This document shows positions 7,026-28,857 of a DNA stretch of 63,431 nucleotides, piece after piece. The stretch comes from Deltaproteobacteria bacterium (GTDB lineage: Bacteria > Desulfobacterota > Binatia > Bin18), in assembly GCA_009692435.1 (NCBI GenBank), contig SHZE01000004.1:1-63431 (forward strand), in the 5' to 3' direction. Every line of letters starts with the position of its first letter. Position 1 is the first letter of the stretch. Both the position numbers and the translations under genes were made by a program. The notes under the pieces were generated by a model, which saw nothing but the letters and a program-made list of their open reading frames with translations, did no database searches and had not been told where the DNA came from.

Positions 7026-7065
7026 CAAATCAAAAGGCAAAAGGCAAAAATCAAAAGGCAAAAAT
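7026..7065 (+). repeat. Heptamer tandem array (CAAAAGG/CAAAAAT) x5, downstream arm of the four-helix-bundle cassette
   Basis: CAAAAGG CAAAAGG CAAAAAT CAAAAGG CAAAAAT at 7031..7065. Confidence 0.9.
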
Positions 7066-7066
7066 G

Positions 7067-7450
7067 TTAGGACAGCGACTCGGGCTTTGTGCTTTTGTCT
7101 TTGCCTTTTGCCGTCGCTACTGCTTTCGAGAGCATGGCTCGGAGCTGGGTAGCTTCATCCAGCAGATCTGTCAGCCGTTCTGAAGGAAGAGGGCGTGCGT
7201 TTATCAGTAGGCGCAGCCAATAATGCGATTCGCGCATTTCTTTCAAGGCGATTTGCAGCTTGTGAACAAAATCTCCTTTGGACTCTGCTCCCTGTGCCTC
7301 TTCGTAATTGGCTCCTACTGACGTTGCACTGCGGAGCAGTTGGTCTCCTATTCGTCTTCCAACAAGAGTTCTTGGCAGAGCTTCGACCAACTTGATGACG
7401 CGTGCTCCGTAATCGAGCAGCCGCTCATCAAGCTCCTGGCGGTCCCCCAT
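7067..7450 (-). CDS. Four helix bundle protein (IVP / 23S rRNA-IVS-like, Avd-like fold)
   Basis: 127 aa; QLLRSATSVGANYEEA...SKGDFVHKLQIALKEMRESHYWL is the family signature. Confidence 0.9.
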   Translation of the reverse strand: MGDRQELDERLLDYGARVIKLVEALPRTLVGRRIGDQLLRSATSVGANYEEAQGAESKGDFVHKLQIALKEMRESHYWLRLLINARPLPSERLTDLLDEATQLRAMLSKAVATAKGKDKSTKPESLS

Positions 7451-7490
7451 TTTTGCCCTTTGCTTTTTGCCTTTTGATTTTTGATTTTGC
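7449..7490 (-). repeat. Heptamer tandem array (CAAAAAT/CAAAAGG variants), upstream arm of the cassette, inverted relative to 7026..7065
   Basis: Minus strand: CAAAAAT CAAAAGG CAAAAAG CAAAGGG CAAAAAT|G; the last unit supplies the ATG. Confidence 0.9.
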
Positions 7491-8427: not shown

Positions 8428-8507
8428 GAAAAATCAAAAGGCAAAAGGCAAAAATAGTGGAAGGGGGAGCTCCAAATCCGCAATCTTAAATCCGCAATCT
8501 TAAATTC
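8428..8507 (+). repeat. Two adjacent heptamer arrays (CAAAAGG type at 8428..8455; AAATCC/GCAATCT type at 8473..8507) overlapping the hisF stop
   Basis: GAAAAAT CAAAAGG CAAAAGG CAAAAAT; CAAATCC GCAATCT TAAATCC GCAATCT TAAATTC. Confidence 0.85.
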
Positions 8508-9321
8508 GGACAGGCACTCCGCGTTTGGCAAGGAACTCTTTACACTCACGAACAGTGTATTCACGATAGTGAAAGATCGACGCCGCGAGTGCCGCATCCG
8601 CGCCGCCAGCAGTCAGACCTTCGTAAATATGTTGGAGTGTGCCGACACCACCAGAGGCAATGACTGGAATAGTGACTGCATCCGCAATCGCTCGTGTCAG
8701 TTCAATGTCATAGCCAGCTTTCGTGCCGTCGCGGTCCATGCTGGTCAGCAGGATTTCTCCCGCGCCATACGATTCCATCCGCCGCGCCCATTCAATGGCA
8801 TCGAGACCTGTCGGTGTTCGCCCACCGTGAATGAAGACCTCCCAGGACAGTGGGCCTGGGGGCTGGGGGCTAGGGACTGGATTTTCTGAACTCGAAACTC
8901 GAAACTCGAAACTCGAAACTTTTCGTTTCGCATCAATCGCCACTACGATACATTGCGAGCCGAAACGCTCGGCGGCTTCTTTCACGAACTCCGGACGACT
9001 GACGGCGGCGGTGTTGATCGACACTTTATCCGCGCCAGCATTGAGCAAGTCACGAATATCTTGGACCTCGTGCACTCCGCCACCAACAGTGAGCGGCATA
9101 AACACCGTTTCCGCGGTTCTCCGCACAACATCAAGGATAATTTTGCGCTGTTCGTGTGAGGCCGTGATATCAAGAAAGGTCAATTCGTCGGCCCCTTCTT
9201 CATCATAGCGCTGCGCGACTTCGACGGGATCGCCGGCATCGCGCAGGTCCACAAAGTTCACCCCTTTGACGACCCGCCCATCTTTGACATCGAGACACGG
9301 AATAATGCGCTTACTCAGCAT
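8500..9321 (-). CDS. hisF: Imidazole glycerol phosphate synthase cyclase subunit, with a repeat-encoded loop insertion
   Basis: [40 protein letters not shown]; 273 aa from ATG 9321. Confidence 0.97.
8856..8920 (+). repeat. Heptamer arrays inside hisF: (CTGGGGG)-type x3.5 and (AACTCGA) x4.5
   Basis: 8856..8880 and 8889..8920; translated as [21 protein letters not shown]. Confidence 0.92.
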
Positions 9322-9363
9322 GCCAGGAGTGTTGAAGGTTTCAGGAAAAGAGTCAAGCACTGC

Positions 9364-10278
9364 TTAGGGTTCAAGATGATCCAGCGAGGCCATAGTCGGG
9401 TCCTTTGGCCCCTCGCCTTGCTCCTCTTCGTTTGTGGCCCACACGATTTTGCTGTAATCGAACCGCCCGGACTCGATCATATTAAATTTGACAATCTCAA
9501 AGTAGGGCGAGAGATCAAAGTCTCGTGGAGTAACGAGGCTGTGATGCGGACGGTGAAAGACGAACTGTGACCGCGAGCCATTGGCGAACGAGAGGAGGCG
9601 TTCACGCCACGAGCGGGGGGTGAGCGTGACCGGTTGCGTGGTGATCTGGGGGACTACTGGAAATCCAACGGTATCAAAGGCAGCGGCAATCATACTGGAA
9701 CAAATGACTTGTGTTGGGAGGCGACTACCAAAGTGGAGTGCTTTGCGTCGGAAGCGACGGGGAACAATACTCACCGGAAGAAAATATCGCGCCAGATCGA
9801 AGACATTTTGCAGATCATATTCATGGCCGAGTTGGTGTATGACCTCATCCAGAATATGTTGCACATGATCCTTACGCAGATTGTGCGGACGGCAGACGCG
9901 AATGTTGAGGTTGAGATACTTGGACAACGGCGACACGACGACTCCCCCTTCGACGAGGGCTTCAACTAAGAGATAGTTCGCCTCTTCTCCAAAGGCCGCT
10001 CGCGCTTGGCCAGCTTGAGGGTGGTTCCGTCGGAGTAATTCATCTCCAATGTAGAGCGCGGCATGGGACCAAGAGCTTTGCGTGAGATATTTGATCACCT
10101 CGCTCACGCGCTGTTCACCTTCAAGGAGGATCACGTCCCCCTTTTTAATATGATTTTTCAGTTCGTCTAGATCATTGGGACAGCGTGAGGTGTAGTTCCT
10201 CAGTCGCTTCGTCAAAATCTTGGTGAATTGCCGAATGAGAAAGCGGCGAATGGCTTGCCAGGGAGAAGCGATACGCAT
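9364..10278 (-). CDS. YiiX/YebB-like permuted papain-like (NlpC/P60) amidase
   Basis: KKGDVILL...SSWSHAALYIG...VICSSMIAAAF (His before Cys). Start at ATG 10278; the longer ORF start lies in repeat DNA. Confidence 0.8.
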   Translation of the reverse strand: MRIASPWQAIRRFLIRQFTKILTKRLRNYTSRCPNDLDELKNHIKKGDVILLEGEQRVSEVIKYLTQSSWSHAALYIGDELLRRNHPQAGQARAAFGEEANYLLVEALVEGGVVVSPLSKYLNLNIRVCRPHNLRKDHVQHILDEVIHQLGHEYDLQNVFDLARYFLPVSIVPRRFRRKALHFGSRLPTQVICSSMIAAAFDTVGFPVVPQITTQPVTLTPRSWRERLLSFANGSRSQFVFHRPHHSLVTPRDFDLSPYFEIVKFNMIESGRFDYSKIVWATNEEEQGEGPKDPTMASLDHLEP

Positions 10279-10323
10279 GGTTCCTATTGTAAGAGAGGGA
10301 AGGGTGAGGAGACAAGGCACGGG

Positions 10324-10438
10324 GGCATGGCGTATAGCTCGCTCCCTACGGTCGCTTGATGGCTTGTGGCAGGAGCGTTCTTGCCATAGAGTGAGCGCAG
10401 CAAACGAGCCATGCGCCATAGAGCGAGTGAAGCGAGCG
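10324..10438. repeat. Short intergenic repeat element with a duplicated GCCATAGAG(T/C)GAG motif
   Basis: GCCATAGAGTGAGCGCAG (10383) and GCCATAGAGCGAGTGAAG (10415); GCTCGCTCCCTACGGTCGC nearby. Confidence 0.4.
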
Positions 10439-10453: not shown

Positions 10454-11188
10454 TTAGTGCGGCAGATGCTTCCCGACCAGAATCGCTTCCGCGAGGTTGA
10501 CCGCCCCGGTATACAATGCCCGCCCGACGATGACTCCGCTGATACCGCGTGACTCTAATGGGGCAAGACGTTGAATGTCACGCAACGTCGCCACGCCGCC
10601 AGAAGCGATGACCGGGAGGGCGACCGCTTGGGCAAGGGCGAGGGTGGCTTCCAGGTTGACTCCCTGTTCGGTGCCGTCACGAGCAATGTCGGTATACACA
10701 ATCTCACTGACCCCCATCGCGGCACAGCGTTGCGCCAAATCCACGGCTTCGAGAGTAGTTGTTTCTGTCCAGCCTTGAACGGCAACCTTTCCGCCGCGCG
10801 CATCGATACCAACGGTAATGTGACCAGGAAAGCGTTGACAAGCCGCCGCTACGACATCAGGGTCGCGGTACGCAACTGTGCCAAGGATCATACGGCTGAC
10901 CCCAAGAAATGACAGCCGCTCAATCGCTTCAAGGTTCCGAATGCCGCCACCCACTTGAACAGGAATGGTCAGTGCTCGACAGATGCGCCCGATGACGGCG
11001 GTATTGACGCCTGAGCCAGAGACTGCGCCGTCGAGGTCAACGACGTGCAAACGCTCGGCTCCCTCATTTTGCCAGCGCAGAGCAGTGGCAACTGGGTCAT
11101 CCGAATAAATCGTGGCTTGGTTCATATCGCCTTGGTAGAGGCGAACGCAGTGACCGTCTTTCAGGTCGATGGCAGGGATAACTAGCAT
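10454..11188 (-). CDS. hisA: ProFAR isomerase
   Basis: MLVIPAIDLKDGHCVRLYQG, LHVVDLDGA, YTDIARDG. Confidence 0.97.
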   Translation of the reverse strand: MLVIPAIDLKDGHCVRLYQGDMNQATIYSDDPVATALRWQNEGAERLHVVDLDGAVSGSGVNTAVIGRICRALTIPVQVGGGIRNLEAIERLSFLGVSRMILGTVAYRDPDVVAAACQRFPGHITVGIDARGGKVAVQGWTETTTLEAVDLAQRCAAMGVSEIVYTDIARDGTEQGVNLEATLALAQAVALPVIASGGVATLRDIQRLAPLESRGISGVIVGRALYTGAVNLAEAILVGKHLPH

Positions 11189-11240: not shown

Positions 11241-11864
11241 TTCTCCCTGTACCAATCGGCCAAAGTTAGAGAGGATACGGAGCCCGATGGACTGGCTTTT
11301 CTCCGGGTGGAACTGGGTTGCAAAAATGTTGCGCCACTGAACGCTCGACGCGAATTCCATCTGGCCGTAGTCCGTGGTGGTGGCAATGATGGCGGGATCG
11401 TCCGGCACTGGATAATAGGAATGGACGAAATAGACGGCAGAGCCTTCGGCGATTCCGTCGAAGTGCGGGAGGCGACGTTTGAGATGGAGCTGGTTCCAGC
11501 CCATGTGGGGAATTTTTCCCCCGTCGAGTTGGGTGGGATCAAACCGCACGACTTGGCCTTTGAGAATATCCAGCCCGCGCACTCGGCCAAACTCAACGCT
11601 TTCTGTAAACAGAATCTGCATGCCCACACAAATACCGAGTAATGGGGTGCCGTTGGCGACGACTCGATACACGGTATCGGTCAGGCCGCATTCGGCCAAA
11701 CCGTTCATGCAAGCGGCGAAAGCCCCAACGCCGGGAAGGACGACTCCTGGAGCGGCCTCAATCCGTTTGGCATCACGGGTCACTTCCGCTGCGTAGCCCA
11801 TTTTCTCAAAGCCCTTCTGGACACTGCGCAAGTTGCCCATGCCGTAATCAATAATGGCAATCAT
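11205..11864 (-). CDS. hisH: IGP synthase glutamine amidotransferase subunit
   Basis: MIAIIDYGMGNL, LGICVGMQ, QFHPEKS. Confidence 0.97.
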   Translation of the reverse strand: MIAIIDYGMGNLRSVQKGFEKMGYAAEVTRDAKRIEAAPGVVLPGVGAFAACMNGLAECGLTDTVYRVVANGTPLLGICVGMQILFTESVEFGRVRGLDILKGQVVRFDPTQLDGGKIPHMGWNQLHLKRRLPHFDGIAEGSAVYFVHSYYPVPDDPAIIATTTDYGQMEFASSVQWRNIFATQFHPEKSQSIGLRILSNFGRLVQGEALAYQSLAPNP

Positions 11865-27897: not shown

Positions 27898-28857
27898 TCA
27901 GTTCTTTTGCGCCGCGACCACCCGGCCAACGCCCGCGTAATCGGGCACGCAAAAGCCATTGGCGAATCCGGTATGCTCTTTAAGCATGGACATGAGGACA
28001 GCCTCTTGTCCGTCGCCGATCTCCAGTACTAGCCAACCGTTAGTCGCGAGGTACTCGGGTGCTTCGTTCAAAAATTGGCGGTAAAAATCGAGCCCATCTT
28101 CTCCACCATCAAGGGCATGCCGTGGCTCCCAGTCTCGGACCTCCGGTTGCAGGGTCAGTAGGTCGCTGCGGGTGATATACGGTGGGTTGGAGACAATCAA
28201 AGCAAACAAGTGGCCCTGGTGAGTAACCGGCGTAAACAAAGAGCCTTGCAGGAAATGGATACGTTGGTGAACGCTATGTTGCTGCGCATTGGCCGTTGCG
28301 ACAGCGAGCGCATTCGCGGAAATGTCGGTTGCCCAGATCTCGGCGGCAGGCAGCTCGGTGGCGAGGGCAATGGCAATGCAGCCGCTGCCAGTGCCAATAT
28401 CGAGAATACGGGTGGGGGGTTGGGACTGATGAGGATTTGGGATTTGGGAAAGGAAGCGTAAGGCAGTTTCGACGAGGAGTTCTGTCTCCGGGCGGGGAAT
28501 CAGCACACGCGAGTCTACCGCGAACTCCAATGACCAGAACTCTTGTATGCCGGTAATGTACTGTACTGGTTCATGTTGGAGGCGGCGGGAGAGTATCTGT
28601 TGAAACGTGGCAATCTGAGGGAGGGACAGCACGGTATGAAAACGAGCGTAGAGCCCGGCGCGATTGATGCCAAGGCTGTGGGCCAGTAACACTTCGGCAT
28701 CAAGCTGGGGAGTTGTCAGGCCCAAGGCCATAAGCTCGGCTTCGGCCCAGGTGAGTACCTGGGCGAGGGTGGCATTGGATGGGGAGAATATATTGTGGGG
28801 ACCTGTTGCTGCCCCATTGCTGCTACTGACAGCTCTCACTCGCGACTCGGAACTCAT
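27898..28857 (-). CDS. prmC: Release factor glutamine methyltransferase
   Basis: VLIPRPETE, LDIGTGSGCIA, VSNPPY. Confidence 0.95.
   Translation of the reverse strand: MSSESRVRAVSSSNGAATGPHNIFSPSNATLAQVLTWAEAELMALGLTTPQLDAEVLLAHSLGINRAGLYARFHTVLSLPQIATFQQILSRRLQHEPVQYITGIQEFWSLEFAVDSRVLIPRPETELLVETALRFLSQIPNPHQSQPPTRILDIGTGSGCIAIALATELPAAEIWATDISANALAVATANAQQHSVHQRIHFLQGSLFTPVTHQGHLFALIVSNPPYITRSDLLTLQPEVRDWEPRHALDGGEDGLDFYRQFLNEAPEYLATNGWLVLEIGDGQEAVLMSMLKEHTGFANGFCVPDYAGVGRVVAAQKN

Follow-up and report, generated by a model that had tools for sequence, protein, structure and literature searches.

In the usual view, non-triplet simple repeats are kept out of the interior of bacterial coding regions. 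HisF, the cyclase subunit of imidazole glycerol phosphate synthase in histidine biosynthesis, is a model enzyme for the evolution and design of TIM barrels. Short tandemly repeated repetitive (STRR) arrays reportedly occur within the gene for RNase P RNA in heterocyst-forming cyanobacteria, as described by Vioque in 1997. Here we describe heptanucleotide repeats in the middle of hisF, in frame, on contig SHZE01000004.1 of an uncultured Binatia bacterium (GenBank assembly GCA_009692435.1). The whole contig, 63,431 nt in length, is the window of this analysis. Arrays of the same kind were found at the same HisF loop in related genomes and in loops of other core enzymes.

Several described systems come close to this locus. 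In the part of Mrazek et al. (2007) relayed by PMC4679880, heptanucleotides are the most abundant long simple sequence repeats (LSSR) in most bacterial genomes, and units in multiples of three are expected in coding regions. The G-rich heptamers of Xanthomonas and Nostoc (GGGAATC, GGGGAYT) lie mostly between genes and are depleted on the coding strand (Rehm et al. 2015, PMC4692102), with an intragenic share of 7–11% in Xanthomonas and 32% in Nostoc (PMC4692102). In marine Beggiatoaceae, reverse units of the TAACTGA family encode LSVINYQLS within a surface loop of an RNA polymerase beta-prime-like open reading frame (ORF), and 7-residue periodic peptides also occur in hypothetical proteins (MacGregor 2015, PMC4679880). 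The Rickettsia palindromic element (RPE) is described, in the excerpt of Ogata et al. (2000) given in PMC10969869, as a palindrome of about 150 bp with conserved sequence and conserved peptide. Phase-variable loci, for example in Haemophilus, belong to surface or modification genes and use tetranucleotide or heptanucleotide repeats in the promoter or at the 5' end as switches (PMC2651432, PMC12721329).

The genome under study (G000) is a metagenome-assembled genome (MAG) of 2.14 Mb in 109 contigs, with 56% G+C and 83% completeness, and its nearest relatives carry the labels Candidatus Binatia or 'Deltaproteobacteria bacterium'. The window is its entire contig C19, in which tandem arrays were called with Tandem Repeats Finder (TRF). 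The hisF gene occupies 8500–9321 on the minus strand (273 amino acids, stop codon 8500–8502, ATG at 9321), and the ORF that holds it (8500–9360, minus strand) contains two heptamer arrays. Both lie in a variable loop of 81 nt (8845–8925, minus strand) that runs for 27 codons from the conserved Lys codon of AIDAK to the Trp codon of WEVFIHGG. This position (codons 134–160 of 273) is mid-gene and not near the 5' end or promoter. One array is perfect (8889–8920, minus strand; TRF period 7, 4.6 copies, 100% matches, score 64) and reads AACTCGA on the plus strand and GTTTCGA, or AGTTTCG, on the coding strand. The other is degenerate (8852–8880, minus strand; TRF period 7, 4.1 copies, 81% matches), reading GGGGCTG on the plus strand and CCCCAGC-type on the coding strand, and its G-rich strand serves as the template in hisF. 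The coding-strand sequence of the loop divides into CGAAAA, (GTTTCGA)x4, GTTCAGA, AAATCCA, GTCCCTA, GCCCCCA, GCCCCCA, GGCCCAC, TGTCC. The two arrays share one 7-nt register over about 70 nt of loop, with 10 units of which the last six are degenerate, so they form a single composite array and not two unrelated ones. These head-to-tail 7-nt copies place the tract among the heptanucleotide simple sequence repeats of the LSSR or STRR kind. The number of chance matches expected for a three-unit probe is 0.00 (100 shuffles).

A first-pass annotation, made from the letters of the window, had reported a 273-residue HisF with an in-frame loop built from two different heptamer arrays. The length from the ATG at 9321 and the translation from VVAIDAKRK to WEVFIHGG are as it gave them, and both arrays are present within an ORF supported by TIGR00735; the common register makes them parts of one 10-unit tract. 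Its remark that three units give one 7-residue period (SFEFRVS) also holds, because three units are 21 nt, or 7 codons. As a separate observation, G-tracts of GGG, GGGGG, GGGGG and GGG with 2–3-nt loops at 8852–8875 of the plus strand, the template strand of hisF, form a canonical G-quadruplex motif.

Support for the sequence itself was taken from Logan contigs of public runs (X1–X4), in which rare variants are dropped. Contigs from X1 match 8500–8918 and 8895–9360 with 0 mismatches, and contigs from X2, which belongs to another study, match 8500–8866 and 8895–9360. The contigs break within the AACTCGA array because its 31-mers recur at other loci. Contigs retrieved at 80% likeness over the locus gave solely hisF of other organisms. 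These breaks, together with the fragmented state of a MAG in 109 contigs, are what might suggest an array made or mis-sized by the assembler or in binning. Such an artefact is scarcely credible, as the X1 and X2 contigs give both junctions and the G-rich array without a mismatch, more than 100 independent assemblies of relatives have arrays at the site, and the reading frame is intact. The array sequence is thus backed by contigs independent of the original assembly.

HisF matches the TIGR00735 equivalog in a single stretch (residues 1–271, profile positions 2–254 of 254) with 398.2 bits against a cut-off of 294.55. In an alignment with T. maritima HisF, its CLDVKDG and AIDAK catalytic motifs are identical. 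We take the catalytic aspartates of the T. maritima enzyme to be D11 and D130, and the Asp of AIDAK to be D130, which sits on the catalytic face and not on the face where HisH docks. An AlphaFold2 model built from 36 homologues has a mean predicted local distance difference test score (pLDDT) of 82 and a predicted template modelling score (pTM) of 0.83, with a confident barrel and an unstructured insert. Template modelling (TM) scores between this model and solved HisF structures in the Protein Data Bank (PDB) are 0.89–0.94, and model and alignment together describe a (beta/alpha)8 barrel with both catalytic aspartates. No match to a second hisF was found in the 83%-complete G000 assembly.

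A phmmer comparison pairs residues 1–132 with T. maritima residues 2–133, ending at AIDAKR, and residues 160–272 with 139–250; the loop has 27 residues here and 5 (VDGEF) in T. maritima. In the model, a strand at 124–132 is followed by residues 133–158 without secondary structure and by strands at 159–163 and 168–173, with pLDDT below 50 at 136–154. From the alignment and the model, the insert is placed at the tip of the hairpin after beta5, three residues beyond the Asp of AIDAK. The first-pass annotation had assigned the repeats to a variable surface loop of the TIM barrel, which agrees with the difference between 5 and 27 residues, the low pLDDT and the predicted position of an unstructured insert at this tip. 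As part of the best explanation weighed below, the insert probably forms a surface loop that is disordered and hydrophilic, has a period of 7 residues and plays no part in catalysis.

The corresponding loop was compared in the 120 closest HisF proteins, which are 82–90% identical. The segment between VVAIDAKRK and WEVFIHGG has 6–41 residues in this set, most commonly 14. Most of these loops are periodic over 7 residues and their peptides differ, with examples such as NPESRSQNPEG, HPTPNTQHPG, TPDSGLQTPDSG, KSQKSKVKSQKS, FQVSSFKFQVS and TSSQYSVVSSQ. DNA was compared at the loop in 14 related genomes, in the genera g3, g6 and g8 and in other families, and hisF was located in relatives by six-frame searches that are independent of gene calling. 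In the 14 related genomes the loop DNA consists of period-7 arrays of differing units, usually mini-arrays joined in one register (for example AAGTCCA x5.9, CAGTAGT, GTCGGCA x4, GAGACTR with CTCAAGY, and CCGCAAT). The array starts immediately after the conserved Lys-Arg-Lys codons in all relatives, and the long loops of close relatives are also encoded by heptamer arrays. No period-7 signal was found in the hisF loops of g3, g6 and g8, which belong to the same family, or of the other families, where the loop has 8–16 codons. The closest homologue, P0001 (RQVQSSENPAPSPQPPTPFS), was compared at the protein level and is shorter by exactly 7 residues at the perfect array.

Loop length and sequence change quickly. 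In pairs whose sequence outside the loop is at least 95% identical, loop length differs most often by 7 residues (43 pairs), and additional peaks lie at 14 (10 pairs), 21 (9 pairs) and 28 (5 pairs). Loops already differ in 98 of the 126 pairs with at least 98% core identity, and 19 loop types occur in 121 sequences. On the core tree, loop type changes 31 times, compared with 57–63 times in the ten shuffled runs listed. The clustering on the tree and the frequent loop differences together indicate that loops are vertically inherited but turn over fast. These patterns bear on the proposal that the long flexible loop is an adaptation, such as an active-site lid, an interaction segment or an 'entropic bristle' for solubility. 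The loop begins on the catalytic face, 3 residues past the catalytic Asp, an over-long loop is kept by most members of several genera, and the peptides are consistently hydrophilic, as an adaptation might require. However, the 19 types and the 98 differing pairs leave sequence and length almost unconstrained, the perfect DNA repeats point to very recent expansion, identical peptides occur in unrelated proteins, and sister genera have merely 8–16 residues. We consider an adaptive origin very improbable.

The reading frame is maintained in nearly all cases. Six-frame searches found hisF in frame and free of stops at the locus itself and in 14 array-bearing relatives. If length were unconstrained, 15 of 16 loci in frame would have P ~8e-7, a value to be read with the loci not fully independent. 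The first-pass annotation had held that the repeats are tolerated, and the frame is indeed kept through very different array lengths. The remaining locus (L073, G015:C67:11000–12500) comes from a genome of the same family that is 93% complete (G015), and its hisF is frameshifted exactly in the heptamer loop. The loop has 37 nt there (CACCGT, ACCCCCG, ACCCCTG, ACCCCCG, ATCCCTTGGA) versus 30 nt in the same loop type, a difference of one extra unit, which puts a TGA in frame and throws the latter half of the gene out of frame. No match to a second hisF was found in G015. Either the hisF of G015 is truly a dead allele, or the extra unit is a sequencing error at a site prone to slippage.

The G015 allele is also what a contingency (phase-variation) switch could produce, with one-unit slippage toggling hisF within the population. 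Three does not divide the unit length, the perfect array of 4.6 copies is prone to slippage, and the frameshift of G015 falls exactly in the array of a genome with no second hisF match. Yet hisF is a housekeeping biosynthetic gene with the array in mid-gene, and known switches lie near the 5' end or in promoters according to Lin and Kussell, as far as they are cited in PMC4692102. The locus itself and 14 relatives are in frame, like arrays are present in valine-tRNA ligase (ValRS) and proline-tRNA ligase (ProRS), where an off state would be lethal, and no array length variant was seen in the assembled contigs, from which rare variants are dropped. A switch thus has little to recommend it.

Arrays in other genes show the same features. 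Flanks were classified with a hexamer model (~95% sensitivity, 8% false positives per flank) that superseded a codon-usage classifier of low sensitivity (58% per flank). Among the 175 testable perfect arrays in G000 that are at least 17 nt long, 17 lie in one open frame with both flanks coding, and in all 17 the reading gives a hydrophilic peptide with abundant Ser, Pro, Gln, Lys, Glu and Arg. AAAAGGC, the most frequent family, occurs in genes solely as QKAKGKR and never as FCLLPFA. Single full-length family matches span arrays in ValRS, ProRS, the release-factor glutamine methyltransferase PrmC and an ABC-F protein, and another in-frame array lies in the linker of a radical S-adenosylmethionine (SAM) fusion protein in G000. 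In prmC, within the window, the array GGATTTG x2.4 (28433–28449, minus strand) is spanned by TIGR03534 in one stretch and encodes SQIPNP just ahead of the SAM-binding motif DIGTGSG. In ValRS (C104:2445–2915), arrays of GGGGACN and CTCAAGT encode a 43-residue loop between the catalytic and anticodon-binding parts. The same ValRS segment, from NKVWNAARF to DRWILSR (loci L074–L094), has 20–27 aperiodic residues in heptamer-poor genera and 22–54 residues with arrays of GGGGACN, AAGGTCC and CTCAAGY in heptamer-rich genera. By eye, arrays of ACTGGAG and ACCCAGC in an open frame at C89:26633–26728 join dihydrolipoamide acyltransferase-like and OsmC-like sequences; this may be a gene fusion made by arrays in a former intergenic spacer.

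The hisF loop was set against the heptamer load of whole genomes. G000 contains 127 perfect period-7 arrays and at most 12 of every other period from 4 to 15. The density of period-7 arrays is 8.45 per 100 kb, compared with 0.47–2.05 for periods 5, 6, 8 and 9 (4–18x). Five of six AAACTCG arrays in G000 are not embedded in a long open frame and 17 of 175 arrays lie in a continuous coding frame, in agreement with the earlier assignment of the repeats to an intergenic type. AAAAGGC, the dominant family, occurs only in genus g1. Array load across genera was counted as period-7 arrays of any unit in sampled regions, because (AAAAGGC)x3 is useless as a measure of load outside g1. Genomes with a hisF array have 29 period-7 arrays in 303 kb and genomes without one have 4 in 480 kb (P = 7e-9), which indicates that the hisF loop is one local expression of a clade-specific, genome-wide heptamer excess. 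Loss of mismatch repair was considered as a cause of the excess and rejected, as MutS (TIGR01070) and MutL (TIGR00585) occur in heptamer-rich and heptamer-poor genera alike. Neither had a match in G000, both are present in same-genus genomes, and MutL is also missing from one further genome (G003); the absence from G000 is likely due to incompleteness (2.1 Mb vs 3.7–6.3 Mb in congeners).

We consider these arrays to be slippage-driven heptanucleotide simple repeats in permissive loops that are selected for reading frame, translated and probably without function, and we assign this explanation a probability of roughly 0.78. Slippage as the mechanism, actual translation and the neutrality of the insert are what we infer from the patterns above. 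A sub-clade of a Binatia family would have a genome-wide excess of 7-nt arrays, mostly intergenic, and an array would have become established in the permissive HisF loop in the ancestor of several genera. Later change would proceed by slippage and by mutation of a unit followed by its re-amplification. Because 7 and 3 share no factor, the survivors would be length changes in multiples of 3, typically three units (21 nt, 7 residues), and the units that survive would be stop-free and read as hydrophilic peptides. Single-unit slips would yield frameshifted dead alleles. The first-pass annotation had written of repeats that invaded a core enzyme. Repeat DNA does lie in a core enzyme, but the wording suggests a recent insertion, and the site is an old hotspot across several genera that has been diversifying in place.

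An insertion would be expected if the tract were all or half of a small mobile element with palindromic structure, resembling an RPE, a miniature inverted-repeat transposable element (MITE) or a heptamer-armed hairpin, that had transposed in frame. Unit families are common to unlinked loci and genomes well above chance, the two-array combination of hisF is found in two CoA-transferase linkers, and a four-helix-bundle gene 1 kb away is flanked by inverted heptamer arrays, all of which such an element could explain. The DNA itself argues otherwise. It folds no better than its shuffles (z = -1.62 for 8830–8945, and -1.7 to +2.2 for 13 loops comprising this one and 12 from relatives), and loop ends are unpaired in minimum-energy structures. 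The loops have no conserved core sequence in common and share only short 7-nt units, and the two-array combination, which recurs at three loci, is short and degenerate. One 7-nt register throughout the tract, length steps of 7 residues and loop types that follow the HisF tree further make a mobile element unlikely. The lack of a hairpin means that the loops are not palindromic elements of the Rickettsia type, and the likeness to those elements drawn by the first-pass annotation is one of outcome (repeat DNA translated in a loop) and not of structure, the arrays being direct and tandem. A palindrome was also considered at locus L004, where GAGACTR on the left and CTCAAGY on the right are near reverse complements, and rejected as no significant hairpin was found.

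Several points weigh against independent slippage in permissive loops as the full explanation. For the copy number of the perfect array the evidence is the original assembly together with the intact frame, as the Logan contigs break inside it. Population variants were sought in contigs, and X3 and X4 have no contig over 8821–8875. In an expression search the locus was present in no RNA run. A flexible loop 3 residues from the catalytic Asp might have a functional role. Six of 14 distinct units in the hisF loops of relatives are identical to families dispersed in G000 (P = 8e-5, at a chance of 5.9% per unit), and seven of the remaining eight are one substitution from such families. An AGTTTC-type array followed by an AGCCCCC-type array, as in hisF, recurs in two CoA-transferase paralogues.

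By eye, these paralogues (C92:7660–7677 and C92:10782–10801) are double-domain CoA-transferase-like proteins with the linker SSPEFQVSS.QPLA.SPQPL common to both. Three paralogous large proteins, regulator-like by eye (C43:41930, C43:47726 and C50:9765), also carry arrays, of AAAAGGC or AGTTTCG. The units differ among these regulator-like paralogues and the position is the same, right after a conserved LKGxLTLQ. Shared units, the recurring pairing and the LKGxLTLQ site are not predicted by local drift alone, and exchange between arrays or a common generating process is a possible source of the shared units. A stronger form of this idea is that the arrays change in concert, through a lineage-specific process that writes a restricted set of 7-nt units, or makes the units uniform, at existing array sites across the genome. 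Loops of HisF, ValRS and other housekeeping enzymes would then be persistent 'protein microsatellites' that are overwritten time and again. That process could be gene conversion, a switch of template from array to array, or a dedicated factor acting in trans. We consider such a system rather unlikely.

Slippage-driven repeats of this kind resemble the bacterial heptanucleotide LSSR and the cyanobacterial STRR in most respects. Units are head to tail, period 7 is in excess, most arrays are intergenic near gene ends, relatives differ in copy number, each genome has several unit families, and an intragenic minority exists. The G-rich strand is the template in hisF, in line with the under-representation on the coding strand in Xanthomonas and Nostoc (PMC4692102). 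Unlike the described LSSR and STRR, those of Binatia comprise dozens of units, occupy the same loops of orthologous housekeeping enzymes across genera, and form composite multi-unit tracts that change in 21-nt steps. Like the arrays in the RNase P RNA gene, the hisF array is tolerated at a permissive position of an essential gene, but that is an RNA gene of another lineage and so has no reading-frame filter.

Resemblance to the TAACTGA repeats (PMC4679880) lies in a mainly intergenic family with copies read as coding sequence for a variable surface loop in a conserved protein. TAACTGA is a single unit family whose forward orientation has stops in all frames and whose coding cases are isolated and mostly at protein ends, whereas Binatia have many families, in mid-protein loops of core enzymes, at a site conserved across genera. 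With RPE, as far as they are described in PMC10969869, the hisF insert has in common that repeat DNA of an intergenic kind lies in frame in unrelated metabolic genes, at surface positions compatible with the fold. It differs in being a direct 7-nt tandem array with no hairpin, no conserved core and slippage-like length changes. Phase-variable loci likewise have non-triplet repeats in or near coding sequence, and a one-unit slip shifts the frame, as in G015; here the arrays are in mid-gene of enzymes for biosynthesis and translation, which could not be switched off without harm. The heptanucleotide-repeat literature compared here does not describe translated hotspots at orthologous sites of core enzymes. 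In a search for Binatia or Binatota with tandem, simple or heptamer repeats, neither name was mentioned in the top-ranked literature. New here is the persistence of heptanucleotide simple repeats at orthologous loops of core enzymes, in frame and, as judged from sequence, presumably translated.

The gene lies in a his cluster. On the minus strand upstream of hisF are hisA (10454–11188; TIGR00007, 273.8 bits against a cut-off of 228.95) and, also on the minus strand, hisH (11259–11861; TIGR01855, 221 bits, above its cut-off), which encodes the glutaminase partner of HisF. Between hisA and hisF is a 351-amino-acid ORF (9364–10419, minus strand), an unusual interloper in a his cluster, for which no NCBIfam match was found. 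In a syntenic relative, a 305-amino-acid gene listed as PF05708 (Peptidase_C92) sits in its place. At the other end of hisF, a 14-nt (2 x 7) array, AAATCCGCAATCTT x2.3 (8474–8505; TRF 100% matches), overlaps the stop codon at 8500–8502, and a CAAAAGG x2.7 array follows at 8435–8453. Heptamer arrays are thus found both within hisF and flush against its end. Farther along, a gene for a four-helix-bundle protein (TIGR02436, 7067–7450) lies between inverted CAAAAGG and TTTTTGC arrays at 7031–7063 and 7450–7488.

A whole sub-clade of Binatia keeps non-triplet repeats in the same loops of essential enzymes over genus-level divergence. For HisF, this amounts to a natural library of 6–41-residue insertions placed 3 residues from the catalytic Asp. 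The arrays offer a route from non-coding repeat DNA to protein sequence, with a cost that is visible as frameshifted alleles. The unit families shared across loci are a lead to the origin of bacterial heptanucleotide repeats, and the arrays could be used as strain-level markers for uncultured Binatia.

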